21,778 bases of DNA from a virus, in UHGV virus genome UHGV-0133264; one strand, written 5' to 3'. The notes below the pieces were generated by a model. That model saw only the letters and a list, made by a program, of their open reading frames with translations. It did no database searches and was not told the origin of the DNA. The translations under genes were made by a program, and so were the position numbers. This document shows, piece by piece, positions 5,728 through 10,407 of this stretch. Positions within the stretch are counted from its first letter, which is position 1, and every line of letters begins with the position of its first letter.

Positions 5728-5744
5728 AATGCTCTAATAAATTT
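5728..5744 (+). promoter_or_regulatory. C1 repressor operator (Op51-type), 16/17 match to ATTGCTCTAATAAATTT
   Basis: AATGCTCTAATAAATTT seen directly. Sits between the divergent sim-like operon and the c4-icd-ant operon, about 40 bp upstream of a consensus promoter. Confidence 0.7.
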
Positions 5745-5782: not shown

Positions 5783-5811
5783 TTGACCTTTTAATCGTTC
5801 AGGCTTATAGT
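5783..5811 (+). promoter_or_regulatory. Sigma-70 promoter for the c4-icd-ant operon (P51-type)
   Basis: TTGACC, 17-nt spacer, TATAGT. Confidence 0.6.
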
Positions 5812-5924
5812 TCCGCCGTCGTAGCAAATTCTGCGACCGGGTTTAGCAGCCTGAATGATTGTGCGGACAGCCGCAGATATCCGATATTGCGGTATTTTTG
5901 TGTCCGTAAAACCGCGTTACGCCC

Positions 5925-6002
5925 AAATTATGGTGGGGCGTGATGGGGAGGCTTCGGCCTGCTGGTTTCACAATCGCCAGTCTGCTAACCCCGTCACGTC
6001 CT
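5925..6002 (+). ncRNA. c4: c4-type antisense RNA, processed from the leader of the icd-ant transcript
   Basis: Long-range helix CGTGATGGGG (about 5938-5947) pairs with CCCCGTCACG (about 5990-5999), enclosing a GGCTTCGGCC hairpin. The element contains CTGCTAAC, complementary to two GTTTAGCAGC copies at about 5841-5850 and 6010-6019, the latter just upstream of the icd Shine-Dalgarno. Boundaries are approximate. Confidence 0.5.
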
Positions 6003-6058
6003 GCCACCTGTTTAGCAGCGGGTAGCAGGTTGTTAAACCTGATTGTGAGGCCGTAACT

Positions 6059-6280
6059 ATGGTTAATGCCAATCCTTGCGCACGCCCAGAATTCATCTGG
6101 CGTTTCTATTCCTGTAAAAAACACCACTATCACTTCGTTATCGCAGCAACTGAAGACGAAGCACGCTCTCAATTGCCTGATGGCCCCTGCATTTTTACTG
6201 CCCGTTTTTCAACTAACTCGCGCAATTCACTTAGTTACTGGAGCCTCCCCTTCTCTGCCGACGTTCAGGGGGGTTTATGA
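6059..6280 (+). CDS. icd: Icd-like small protein (interference with cell division), translationally coupled to ant
   Basis: 73-aa ORF with GTGAGG Shine-Dalgarno. Its TGA stop overlaps the ant ATG in an ATGA arrangement. Lies immediately downstream of the c4 target repeat. Confidence 0.55.
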   Translation: MVNANPCARPEFIWRFYSCKKHHYHFVIAATEDEARSQLPDGPCIFTARFSTNSRNSLSYWSLPFSADVQGGL

Positions 6281-7323
6281 AAAAACCTCTCGTCACCCGT
6301 AATGACATAGCCGAAGCGATCGCCCTGCATACTGCCTGTATACCGACACGGGAGATCCCCGGCGCAATTGCCAACTATTTCATGATAACCAGGCGTTTTT
6401 ATACCCGAACAGATAAGGCTGTGATCAACAGGCTACTGATAGCCGAGATCAGGGATTATTTGATTGAACAAGGACGTCTACGTTACGCAACGGTGGCAGC
6501 AGAAATGAGAAAGGAGGCACATAGAATGACCAGTAATAATTTGAATGTTAAAAAACCAGCACCTGTTGCTTCAGCAACGCCAGCACCAGCCGTGAATGTC
6601 ATCCCCACCACCGGAGACACAATCGACAGCCTGACACTGTTAAAGATGGTCAATGAGGCACGGAAATTATGTAGCGAAAAACCAGTTCGCAACAATGATT
6701 TCATTGCCAGAGTTAAGGATGAGCTTGATGGGGAGGGTTACGAAATCTTCGTAACCCCTATGGATAAGAAAAAAGGTGGAGCGGATCAGGTAGTTATAGT
6801 AATGACATACAAACAAGCCCTGCGCGTTGCTGCTCGCGAATCGAAAGCGGTCCGCCGTTCGCTGATCGACAAACTGGAAGAATTGCAGCAGGCAAACTCC
6901 CCTACCCCATCGATCCCCCAAACATTACCGGAAGCACTGCGCCTGGCTGCCGAGTTAGCAGAACAGAAAATGCAGCTGGAACAACAGCTGGTGGCCGCAG
7001 CCCCTAAAGTCGATTTTGCCGACCGGGTATCAGTGGCTAATGGAATCCTGATCGGGAACTTTGCAAAGGTCGTTGGACTGAAGCAAAACGCCCTTTTCTC
7101 ATGGTTGCGCCAGAACGGCATTCTCATGGCTTTTGGTGCGCGCAAAAACGTACCGCGCCAACAGTACATCAACGCCGGGTATTTCACGGTGAAAGAAGTG
7201 GTGCTGGATGATGAAAATGGCTACCAGATACGGCTGACGCCCCAATTAACGGGTAAAGGCCAGCAGTGGTTGACTCGCAAGCTACTTGATGCTGGTTTGT
7301 TAAAACCAGTAGCAATAGGTTAA
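6277..7323 (+). CDS. ant: Antirepressor Ant1 (348 aa), with in-frame internal start for Ant2 at about 6526
   Basis: The C-terminal ~110 aa (LPEALRLAAELAEQK...APKVDFADRV...GKGQQWLTRKLLDAGLL) form an Ant/KilA C-terminal domain, about 60% identical to the C-terminus of the downstream kilA. A strong internal AAGGAGG sits 8 nt before Met 84 (MTSNNLNV...). Position after c4-icd matches the P1 immI operon. Confidence 0.75.
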   Translation: MKKPLVTRNDIAEAIALHTACIPTREIPGAIANYFMITRRFYTRTDKAVINRLLIAEIRDYLIEQGRLRYATVAAEMRKEAHRMTSNNLNVKKPAPVASATPAPAVNVIPTTGDTIDSLTLLKMVNEARKLCSEKPVRNNDFIARVKDELDGEGYEIFVTPMDKKKGGADQVVIVMTYKQALRVAARESKAVRRSLIDKLEELQQANSPTPSIPQTLPEALRLAAELAEQKMQLEQQLVAAAPKVDFADRVSVANGILIGNFAKVVGLKQNALFSWLRQNGILMAFGARKNVPRQQYINAGYFTVKEVVLDDENGYQIRLTPQLTGKGQQWLTRKLLDAGLLKPVAIG

Positions 7324-7335
7324 CAAAAGAAAAAA

Positions 7336-7360
7336 CCTGCCAGCGAACTGGCAGGTTTCT
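7336..7360 (+). terminator. Rho-independent terminator after ant
   Basis: Stem CCTGCCAG, loop CGAA, stem CTGGCAGG, then TTTCT. Confidence 0.7.
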
Positions 7361-7400
7361 GAGCAGTTCGACCAACCCGATCTGGATCGAGTTAGAAAAA

Positions 7401-7417
7401 TTTGCTCTAATAAATTT
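7401..7417 (+). promoter_or_regulatory. C1 repressor operator (Op53-type) controlling the kilA-repL lytic replicon
   Basis: TTTGCTCTAATAAATTT, 16/17 to the C1 operator consensus, about 70 bp upstream of the kilA ATG. Confidence 0.7.
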
Positions 7418-7486
7418 CGTTTTCTAAGTGCAAAGAATCACCATTTCGAGCTGGTGATTGAAGGTTGATGCAAATTTGGAGAAAAA

Positions 7487-8286
7487 ATGCAACAAACATT
7501 CAATGCGGATATGAATATATCAAACCTTCATCAAAATGTCGATCCTTCAACCACTCTACCTGTTATTTGTGGTGTTGAAATTACGACCGACCGCGCTGGC
7601 CGTTACAACCTTAATGCTCTACACAGAGCGAGCGGACTCGGTGCCCATAAAGCGCCAGCTCAATGGCTAAGAACGCTGTCAGCCAAACAGCTCATTGAAG
7701 AGCTTGAAAAAGAAACTATGCAGAATTGCATAGTTTCGTTCGAAGGTCGTGGCGGCGGCACTTTTGCCCATGAATTGCTCGCTGTGGAGTACGCAGGTTG
7801 GATTTCTCCCGCGTTTCGGCTGAAGGTAAACCAGACATTTATCGACTATCGAGCCGGAAGATTACAACCAGCTATTCCGCAGAGTCTCCCTGAAGCACTC
7901 CGTTTGGCAGCCGACCTGGCAGAGCAAAAGCAACGCCTGGAGCAAAAAATGCTTATGGATGCCCCTAAAGTCGAATTCGCCGAACGCGTTGCTACCGCAG
8001 CGGGGTTCTAATCGGCAACTATGCCAAAGTGCTCGGCCTGGGCCAAAACTATCTCTTCACCTGGTTGCGTGATAACGGAATTCTGATCGCAACCGGTGAA
8101 CGCAGGAACGTCCCCAAACAAGAATACATATCCCGTGGGTATTTCACCCTTAAAGAAACCGTGATCGATACAAGCAATGGAAGCAGGATTTCTTTCACGA
8201 CTCGTATAACCGGCAAAGGTCAGCAGTGGCTTATGAAGCGATTGCTTGATGCTGGTGTGCTGGTGCCTATCGCGGCGACGCGCTAA
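7487..8286 (+). pseudogene. kilA: kilA (KilA-N domain plus Ant/KilA C-terminal domain) interrupted by a 1-nt frameshift near 8005
   Basis: ORF 7487-8011 (174 aa, KilA-N-like) and ORF 8029-8286 (85 aa, C-terminal domain) are colinear with the intact ant paralogue. Around 8001-8016 the sequence CGGGGTTCTAATCGGC reads F-stop, while the +2 frame reads LIGNYAKVLGLGQN, matching ILIGNFAKVVGLKQN in ant. The span is 800 nt; one more base restores a 266-aa protein. Confidence 0.7.
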
Positions 8287-8315: not shown

Positions 8316-9161
8316 ATGCTGGCTAAAGTCACTTTCCTGAGCTGTATAACGATGAGCGATTTTACTTTTTCTGGCTATGAATTGGCCTGCTTTGTAACAC
8401 ACTCCGGTCTATCCCGTAGCGCCGGGCATATCCTGTCGCAATGTGCAAATCTCGCGGCAACAACCAGTGAATACTTCATTCACAAGCCTCACCGCCTGAT
8501 CGCGGCAGAAACTGGTTATAGCCAATCAACCGTCGTTCGTGCATTCCGTGAAGCTGTAAACAAAGGAATCCTGTCTGTAGAGATTGTTATCGGCGATCAC
8601 CGTGAACGCCGCGCTAACCTGTACCGGTTTACACCATCCTTTTTGGCCTTCGCACAACAAGCTAAAAACGCGCTGACTGAAAGCAAATTAAAGATCTCTT
8701 CAGCCGCAACCAAGGTTAAAGCTGTTCTCGCTAAGACATTGGCTTTATTTGATTTTTTATCCACACCCCCATGTCAAAATGATACCCCCTCCCCCTGTCA
8801 GGATGACGTGGCAATAAAGAATAAGAAGTCACAAGTTAAAAAAACAAAAAGATCAGTTTCCGGCGGTGCCGGAACGACCAGACTCAAAAAATTGACTTCA
8901 TGGATCGCTGAGGCAAAAGCAAAGGCTGACAATCTGCGGTTATCCAAAAAACGCGCTCAAAAACATGAGTTCAAGCAGAAAGTAGAGGCGGCTGCGCGGA
9001 AATATGCTTACCTGAAGAACAAGCGTTCGCCTGATATTGGCGGGATATCAAACTTCGATAACCTACCGCATTGCATGACGGTAAACGAAGCTCTTAATGC
9101 GGTTTTAGCCAAAAATAAAGATAACGAACAATGGGGTATACCGGCGGGATTCAGAGGGTGA
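8316..9161 (+). CDS. repL: RepL, initiator of the lytic replicon (origin expected inside the gene)
   Basis: 281-aa ORF directly downstream of kilA under the Op53 operator. The stretch from MSDFTFSGYELACFV onward matches my recollection of P1 RepL. An alternative start at Met 13 (8352) is possible. Confidence 0.75.
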   Translation: MLAKVTFLSCITMSDFTFSGYELACFVTHSGLSRSAGHILSQCANLAATTSEYFIHKPHRLIAAETGYSQSTVVRAFREAVNKGILSVEIVIGDHRERRANLYRFTPSFLAFAQQAKNALTESKLKISSAATKVKAVLAKTLALFDFLSTPPCQNDTPSPCQDDVAIKNKKSQVKKTKRSVSGGAGTTRLKKLTSWIAEAKAKADNLRLSKKRAQKHEFKQKVEAAARKYAYLKNKRSPDIGGISNFDNLPHCMTVNEALNAVLAKNKDNEQWGIPAGFRG

Positions 9162-9211
9162 TAGATTGCTCTAATCTGGAGTCACCTGGCGTTTTCAGTT
9201 TGAGGTCGGAG

Positions 9212-9457
9212 ATGCAATCTGATTTTTTACAGTTAGCGATCGCTTTTGCAGGATATGTTTGCATTGGCTTCTGTGTATACATGATCAGCCGAAAAATACT
9301 TGTCGATATCGACCGCAAAGAACGAGCAGAGGAAATCTTAGTATGGATTTTCTTTGGCGCGGTCTGGCCATTAGGGATCATGTTTGCTGCAACATTTCTT
9401 CTGATGTGGATATTCACCCTTCCAGGTGATTTCTATAGAAAAAAAGCCAGACATTGA
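9212..9457 (+). CDS. Small two-helix membrane protein (possible P1 rlfA position)
   Basis: Listed ORF 9131-9457; the likely start is the internal ATG at 9212 with GAGG upstream, giving MQSDFLQLAIAFAGYVCIGFCVYMI... Two hydrophobic segments. Confidence 0.4.
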   Translation: MQSDFLQLAIAFAGYVCIGFCVYMISRKILVDIDRKERAEEILVWIFFGAVWPLGIMFAATFLLMWIFTLPGDFYRKKARH

Positions 9458-9639
9458 TACACCCGCTGCGGGTGCTTGAGGCTATCTGCTTCAGGCATTA
9501 CCCGACAAGCAGATAGAAAAAAGCCCCAGATAACATTACGCGTCCTGCAAGACGCTTAACATTAATCTGAGGCCATATCTATGCTTAGCATACGTAGATT
9601 AGCCCTCTCCCCTTTTAAGGAGCAAGGAATTTTTTACTG

Positions 9640-10272
9640 CTATGCCGCCTTTCCAGTTATGGATTCAGCGACAAGAACAACCCCATGCTTACTTCGATCT
9701 GGGTGTTCACTCCATATCTCGGATTCAGGAATACTTTCCCCGTCATAGCAAACACGTTCGCCGTCAAACGGGTAATACTGAGCGGCATCGGTGTCGAGGA
9801 TAAACACTTTTAGCTCGGAAGAGCGACGGGCGATGTGTTGCCAAAGAGCTTTTCCACCTTCGTATTGCTCATTATCACTGAGCAAAACAACACCAGCTTT
9901 TGAGGCTACGGTTTCGTAAACAAAAGTAGCTAAACCGACATCCCGGACGGTTCCATCAACCACGATACCTTCAATCTGGGCAACATCGCTATCCTCCCAG
10001 AACTTCCTTACCAGTACGCCTTCAAGCTGCGGGCGACGTTGAAGTTCAAGAGTAGCGACAACCTTATGGCGCATATCACCATCGATAACAGAAGGCGCAG
10101 CCTCTATTACAGCTGCAAATGGGGTTTTGGAATCCCATATAACCTGGTAAAGCACACCCTGGATGGTAACTCCGTCCAGGATCGAAAATCGACGAGCGAC
10201 AGTACCCGGGGAGTACGACATTGGAATCACAGCCATTTTAGAGTCCCCCTTTAACAGTACAGGCACAAACAT
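9640..10272 (-). CDS. Hypothetical protein (possible rlfB/pmgF position)
   Basis: 210-aa ORF. The likely start is Met 13 (about 10236), preceded by AAGGGGGA. Monocistronic: promoter-like AT-rich region upstream and the terminator of the neighbouring operon beyond it. Confidence 0.5.
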   Translation of the reverse strand: MFVPVLLKGDSKMAVIPMSYSPGTVARRFSILDGVTIQGVLYQVIWDSKTPFAAVIEAAPSVIDGDMRHKVVATLELQRRPQLEGVLVRKFWEDSDVAQIEGIVVDGTVRDVGLATFVYETVASKAGVVLLSDNEQYEGGKALWQHIARRSSELKVFILDTDAAQYYPFDGERVCYDGESIPESEIWSEHPDRSKHGVVLVAESITGKAA

Positions 10273-10363
10273 CTACCTCAATAATTGTAGTTTATTAGAA
10301 CATTAATAATCTAACATAAAACTCCAGACAATGTTATCGATGCATTTTTATATAAAAAGGTTA

Positions 10364-10386
10364 TAAAAAAAGCTCCCGAAGGAGCT
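10364..10386 (-). terminator. Rho-independent terminator ending the late head/sheath/tube operon
   Basis: On the minus strand: stem AGCTCC, loop TTCG, stem GGAGCT, followed by TTTTTTT. Lies about 20 bp after the stop of the 169-aa gene. Confidence 0.7.
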
Positions 10387-10407
10387 TTAAAATACAAGGG
10401 ATGACTC

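Follow-up and report, generated by a model that had tools for sequence, protein, structure and literature searches.

The window, a 21,778-nucleotide stretch of the virus genome UHGV-0133264, very probably carries two copies of a known, portable domain, KilAC, at the ends of the adjacent, C1-controlled genes ant1/2 and kilA, where the copies follow interchangeable N-terminal domains, are old, and do not constitute a recombination substrate. Because the two copies are too diverged to recombine, the arrangement is ordinary, textbook phage modularity. The domain relationship between Ant and KilA is itself already known, being catalogued in Pfam and RefSeq, reportedly since 2002. It matters little as a discovery. 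Its value lies in negatives and corrections: the ant/kilA pair is no recombination hazard, and an annotation of the contig ought to mark kilA as frameshifted, whether as a pseudogene or through an assembly error.

The whole stretch is a P1/P7-like phage-plasmid contig with the gene order c4–icd–ant1/2 followed by Op53–kilA–repL. Over about 3.4 kb (from 5800 to roughly 9175-9200) it is 98.4% identical to P7 and 95.4% identical to P1, with the same gene order, and the best matches to the full 21.8 kb, which are P1-like phage-plasmids of E. coli, reach 96.7%. The features that follow lie on the plus strand unless stated otherwise. The P1 immI operon is represented by the C1 operator Op51 (Oc4; 5728-5744) upstream, which has one mismatch to ATTGCTCTAATAAATTT and is annotated at the same position in P1 and P7; by the a1/b1 target sites of the C4 RNA (5805-5857; Rfam RF03163, 55.5 bits against a gathering score of 46.7); by the C4 antisense RNA gene (5926-6011; Rfam RF01695, 69.6 bits against a gathering score of 45); and by icd (6059-6280), an ORF of 73 aa at the position annotated in P7 and P1. 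The icd ORF overlaps the start of ant1 (6277-7323), an ORF of 348 aa within the 3.4 kb shared with P7. The ant2 start, in frame and preceded by AGGAGG, is placed at 6526 from the P7 annotation. An exact-sequence look-up found the identical Ant protein in assemblies of Escherichia ruysiae and E. coli as well.

The P1 lytic replicon follows. A terminator-like hairpin with a 13-bp stem (7331-7360, with no strand assigned) lies between ant and promoter P53 (predicted RNA fold of 7318-7375, -22.9 kcal/mol, z = -4.26). The C1 operator Op53 (OrepL; 7401-7417), at the position given in the P1 annotation and with one mismatch to the consensus, overlaps the -10 element of P53; at one mismatch, the operator scan is expected to return 0.09 chance matches. 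Downstream are kilA (7487-8286, frameshifted) and, 30 nt further on, repL (8316-9161), an ORF of 281 aa annotated in P1 and P7 as the lytic replication initiator, which contains oriL and whose orthologues match PF26868. On the minus strand, a P53as-like antisense promoter within the kilA 5' end (7514-7542; 10/12 consensus match plus an extended TG) corresponds to PaskilA of the P1 annotation. The reference genomes of P1 and P7 (AF234172, AF503408) have the same genes, order, operators, and C4 RNA, and both their KilA and their Ant proteins carry KilAC. The window differs from them by a 1-nt deletion in kilA and by its sequence downstream of repL, which from ~9176 stops matching rlfA/rlfB of either phage; a Pfam search of the ORFs in that region gave no significant match.

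The original prediction that the C termini of ant and kilA are homologous holds at approximately the positions given for it, but the shared segment is about 134 codons long, not ~110. It spans 6913-7314 in ant and 7874-8275 in kilA, with 66% amino acid identity over 134 residues (Ant 213-346), and it contains all three of the motifs that had been quoted, LPEALRLAA[ED]LAEQK, APKV[DE]FA[DE]RV, and GKGQQWL. In a full comparison, Ant and the intact KilA of P7 are 51% identical over 200 aa (E = 3e-66). Both proteins exceed the 25.3-bit gathering score of PF03374 (ANT/KilAC), Ant with 106.3 bits at residues 235-337 (6979-7287) and P7 KilA with 112.2 bits at residues 152-254. Like other members of the KilAC/ANT family, the two modules are C terminal and follow a variable N-terminal domain; they show no substantive difference from the family except that the kilA copy of the window is split by a frameshift.

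That the domains ahead of the common module are unrelated, as had also been proposed, was borne out and is again a known arrangement. KilA-N (PF04383) is found at residues 27-123 of the 174-aa kilA ORF (76.5 bits; cut-off, 23.8). The N-terminal part of Ant has no Pfam match, KilA-N included, and matches only PHROG 63 and 1726, both "anti-repressor". By BLASTP, similarity between the Ant N-domain and KilA-N is undetectable (E = 0.44), and hhalign, run on profiles of the Ant and pRha N-domains, returned a probability of 15.8%. An NCBIfam search returned no matches.

The kilA gene is not a single ORF in this contig; a frameshift in it had been overlooked. At 7997-7998 the ACCGCCAGC of P1 and P7 reads ACCG-CAGC, with one C lost at 7998, so that frame 0 ends at the TAA at 8009-8011 after 174 codons. 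The resulting frame-0 ORF (7487-8011) encodes KilA-N (7565-7855), the linker, and the first KilAC residues before its premature stop. The remainder of the KilAC sequence, GKGQQWL included, lies in the +2 frame (7999-8286). The module coding sequence is thus distributed over frame 0 (7874-7998) and frame +2 (7999-8275), as also seen in the tblastn HSPs (7874-8008 and 7999-8274), and an 85-aa ORF at 8029-8286 matches positions 32-106 of the PF03374 profile with 82.5 bits. The KilAC sequence is intact and in one frame in ant and is split in kilA; because of the 1-nt deletion, only ant encodes an intact KilAC in this contig. The lesion looks private to it, since the best 30 E. coli matches all span 993-994 nt against the 992 nt of the query and an exact-sequence look-up found the truncated 174-aa product on no other contig. 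It could be a real pseudogene or an assembly error of the metagenomic contig.

AF2 models give Ant a confident N-terminal globular domain of the P1/P7 type (residues ~115-207; 6619-6897), a long linker helix (217-241), and then the KilAC core. The pLDDT of the N-domain is mostly 80-95, falling to ~70 around residues 161-170; the mean pLDDT is 75-76. The core is modeled as short helices, a long beta-hairpin, and a C-terminal helix, and the module as a whole (6913-7314) would comprise the linker helix and a winged-helix-like core. The ~90-residue core is tentatively predicted to resemble a winged helix-turn-helix of the MerR/excisionase type. A sequence search among solved structures found no relatives of KilA, and the angiotensinogen matches that it returned for Ant were set aside as chance; a Foldseek search of the PDB with the full-length Ant model gave nothing at E <= 0.001.

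Two co-oriented copies of one domain had been proposed as a substrate for homologous deletion, and a model in which the direct KilAC repeats drive such a deletion would yield an Ant::KilA hybrid with repL expressed from the immI promoter. We consider this very improbable. In its favor, the copies share one orientation at a distance of 961 nt, their longest common run keeps codon phase, and natural alleles of kilA itself document deletion between short repeats, a 75-nt in-frame loss between TTCTAATCG and TTCTGATCG. However, the nucleotide sequences speak against it. An alignment of 6900-7323 with 7870-8286 has 258 identities in 414 ungapped columns (62.3%), too low for recombination and low enough to refute the proposal on its own terms. 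No 60-nt window of the alignment exceeds 70% identity, and the window as a whole lacks any repeated 20-mer. The longest exact run between the copies is 14 nt (GCCCCTAAAGTCGA, at 7000 and 7961), the next longest being 12 and 11 nt. Within the window, blastn aligns 6928-7197 with 7889-8157 (66.9% over 272 nt, E = 6.6e-18), and megablast gives no match between the ant and kilA copies. Recombination by RecA/RecBCD in E. coli needs roughly 20-30 nt of perfect identity, as reported by Shen and Huang (1986); the 14-nt run is shorter than this, and the pair, at 37-38% divergence, also lacks the low overall divergence that RecA-dependent recombination calls for. In phage lambda, the recombinant yield from repeats of ~800 bp was ~1e-6 for RecABCD when they differed by 22%, and <1e-8 via Red when they differed by 52% (PMC2327257), which further disfavors the model.

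Nor were products of such a deletion found. As modeled, it would remove the ant 3' end, the terminator, P53/Op53, and the kilA 5' end, so that the earlier wording, in which kilA-repL is placed under immI control, is wrong: kilA would be destroyed. We searched with an 802-nt chimeric probe in which ant-N (6500-6900) is joined to the repL 5' end (8316-8716); its halves normally lie 1,416 nt apart and match in separate places, whereas in a deletion fusion they would lie ~450 nt apart and match as one joined place. None of 518 plasmid records, 529 E. coli records, or 26 phage records contained an ant::kilA fusion. In a protein search with Ant residues 1-212, the best 120 of 1,635 matches were examined; 117 of these are at least 260 aa long, and all 117 clusters carry a KilAC of the Ant type (93-100% identity, against at most 68% to the KilA type). 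The recombinant junctions that the proposal would lead one to look for are therefore absent from more than 1,000 nucleotide records and from 117 protein clusters. One candidate (H72/L005), in which only the last 238 nt of kilA precede repL, was rejected; its upstream neighbor is a portal gene and not ant, which makes it a rearrangement unrelated to an ant::kilA deletion.

The same comparisons bear on the age of the copies. Identity between the ant and kilA modules is 70%, 80%, and 38% at the three codon positions, and among fourfold sites of residues shared by both, only 38% agree; saturation of the synonymous sites precludes an estimate of dS. The similarity of the two modules very probably reflects purifying selection on the protein. 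In each of the five genomes compared (the window, P7, P1, pKP12226, and pO26_EH031_1), identity between the paralogues is 60-63%, whereas orthologues across these genomes are 97-100% identical and variant ant alleles 84-92%. No tracts of gene conversion between the ant and kilA copies are visible in the five genomes or in the window alignment, which counts against the proposed deletion. A recent in situ tandem duplication that is still homogenized by gene conversion would account for two adjacent, co-oriented genes whose KilAC domains form weakly sister clades in an unbootstrapped NJ tree, but the saturation of synonymous sites, the 60-nt windows that never exceed 70% identity, and the steady paralogue identity set against 84-100% among orthologues make it extremely improbable. 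Moreover, the distance between the two P1 copies is no smaller than that from either of them to non-P1 KilAC domains, which also argues against recent duplication. The weakly sister position of the two P1 clades leaves room for an old duplication within the P1 lineage. The KilAC copies of ant and kilA are very probably old homologues held apart by divergence rather than the products of a recent duplication.

KilAC was reportedly defined on the C terminus of P1 KilA by Iyer, Koonin and Aravind (2002), according to later papers, and Azulay et al. linked the domain to Ant1/Ant2 of P1/P7 (PMC9043618); RefSeq already labels the products of both ant and kilA as KilAC proteins. In the Ant proteins of pKP12226 and pO26_EH031_1, ORF6N (PF10543) replaces the P1-type N-domain, and the mosaic breakpoint between these alleles and the window falls exactly at 6913, the first codon of the shared module. 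From 6913 onward, the window resembles pKP12226 at 98.0% and pO26_EH031_1 at 95.4%; upstream, neither plasmid matches over 6530-6912, and the stretch with icd and the start of ant1 (6086-6529) is only ~70% identical. The conserved KilAC thus marks a boundary at which P1-like plasmids exchange immI alleles with different Ant N-domains.

Phage_pRha proteins carry the same module. Their KilAC domains are 57-72% identical to both P1 copies and share the IPQTLPEALRLAA linker with them, and they differ in having Phage_pRha as the N-domain. We examined two of these loci, P0015 (Edwardsiella) and P0032 (E. coli), whose KilAC domains are 65-68% identical to the P1 copies. Both loci belong to lambdoid prophages with repressors of the CI/Peptidase_S24 type and occupy the nin region, with the replication genes on one side and Q on the other.

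In the preferred reading, that of two long-diverged copies of a portable domain, each module would consist of a linker helix and a ~90-residue core and would combine with a P1-type Ant-N, ORF6N, KilA-N, or pRha domain. The N-terminal domains would give specificity, and KilAC would act as a generic effector or nucleic acid-binding module whose target is DNA or a conserved host factor. By analogy with isolated KilAC domains elsewhere, candidates for such a factor may lie in cell division or in SOS/RecA. The KilAC domain of AriS from Listeria phi10403S blocks the SOS response (PMC9043618), KilA-C of Gp07 from S. aureus phi11 causes filamentation in E. coli (PMC5944126), and CreP of A. baylyi, a lone-KilAC toxin, causes bacteriostatic filamentation with weak coimmunoprecipitation of FtsZ (bioRxiv 10.1101/2024.01.05.574328). 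These three proteins resemble Ant and KilA in having a C-terminal or stand-alone KilAC with variable N-domains (AntA/B, Bro-N, pRha), a likeness drawn from published descriptions; they are distant in sequence from the P1 proteins, and the activities are their own.

It had been suggested that Ant and KilA share a target, with C1 in mind. A common target is plausible, and to judge from the distribution of the domain, C1 would be an unlikely one, as KilAC is conserved in phages with unrelated repressors. The more specific proposal is that KilAC is a C1-binding module and KilA a second antirepressor acting on the target of Ant1/Ant2. Binding of C1 by the antirepressor is known for P1 Ant (Riedel 1993, as cited in PMC9043618), M. 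Lobocka has put KilA forward as a further antirepressor (personal communication, as cited in PMC8201110), and no P1vir genes are expressed more highly than ant1 and kilA (PMC8201110). Among the P1-like plasmids examined, moreover, the P1-type and ORF6N-type Ant have no conserved segment other than KilAC, which would also be consistent with C1 binding by this domain. Against this, the pRha proteins carry closely similar KilAC domains, and both of the loci examined have repressors unrelated to C1; on their own, KilAC domains affect processes of the host (Listeria, E. coli, and Acinetobacter); and kilA is non-essential by CRISPRi, is disrupted here, and elsewhere has a 25-aa deletion that takes out two HTH helices. 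On balance, we think it improbable that KilAC is the part that recognizes C1. It is somewhat less doubtful, though still unlikely, that Ant and KilA both carry in KilAC a toxic effector that works by itself on the host, with P1-like plasmids inactivating the copy in kilA time and again to lower the cost of carrying it, a possibility raised by the private frameshift in the window together with a second frameshift allele (P0122) and the widespread 25-aa deletion (P0123).

Damage to kilA is indeed not limited to this contig. The P0123 product (241 aa) has an in-frame loss of 25 residues (GNYAKVLGLGQNYLFTWLRDNGILI), corresponding to the two HTH helices, which is caused by the 75-nt deletion between TTCTAATCG (8006-8014) and TTCTGATCG (8081-8089). 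It is listed in 65 blocks of the collection, and the 24 contigs that we read name Salmonella and E. coli as sources. By CRISPRi, kilA, ant1, and ant2 all score as non-essential, and the damaged alleles fit a domain that is dispensable and possibly costly. P0122 is a further kilA frameshift allele, independent of the others.

In the P1-like plasmids pKP12226 and pO26_EH031_1, the ant allele carries ORF6N (PF10543) as its N-domain (L003:1820-2911 and L004:1727-2839, respectively). Comparison of the window with both plasmids reveals a sharp mosaic breakpoint at window position 6913, which is the exact start of the KilAC module. Identity across icd and the 5' end of ant1 reaches only ~70%.

Many P1-like plasmids also contain a second match to the ant/kilA region of the window, and an additional ant gene between pacB and c1 has been described (PMC6906374). 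At L006:3007-3339, a KilAC gene that adjoins c1 and is cut off by IS1 shares 84 to 92% nucleotide identity with the KilAC copies of immI ant genes, the KilAC copy of kilA being much more distant from it. The pRha-KilAC proteins of two lambdoid prophages (L007:8001-8705 and L009:8001-8708) have KilAC domains that are 66 to 68% identical to that of P1 Ant. Both of their genes are housed in the nin region, with replication genes on one side and NinG/Q on the other, and the prophages that bear them have CI/S24-type repressors.

The kilA gene itself is altered in several ways. In the window, 1 nt has been lost relative to P1 and P7 (CC to C, within 7997-8011), and this deletion gives rise to a premature TAA at 8009-8011. 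The resulting 174-aa truncated KilA product was found on the window's own ENA contig only, and the gene is either a pseudogene or the product of an assembly error. A natural kilA allele of 241 aa (P0123), for which the collection lists 65 blocks, has lost 75 nt in frame between TTCTAATCG and TTCTGATCG, two direct repeats that match imperfectly (window 8006-8014 and 8081-8089); two HTH helices of KilAC are missing as a result. At kilA loci of this type (L011:2501-3226, L012, and L013), an IS element interrupts the immI region upstream of kilA. In plasmid p3347558_2 (L005:2900-3270), just the final 238 nt of kilA, from the equivalent of window position 8049, lie 5' of repL. An ant-kilA recombinant was considered here and rejected, as the neighbor of this remnant is a phage portal gene; the locus is the product of an illegitimate rearrangement.

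Downstream of repL, the match to P1 and P7 (rlfA/rlfB) is lost over window 9176-10400. Neither the 108-aa open reading frame (9131-9457, plus strand) nor the 210-aa open reading frame (9640-10272, minus strand) in this region gave a significant Pfam match. A hairpin with a 13-bp stem (7331-7360) separates the ant stop codon from P53, and the RNA fold of 7318-7375 has an energy of −22.9 kcal/mol (z = −4.26). Because its T-run is on the minus strand, the hairpin is likely to be either a terminator that would keep immI read-through out of the lytic replicon or one that acts in both directions.
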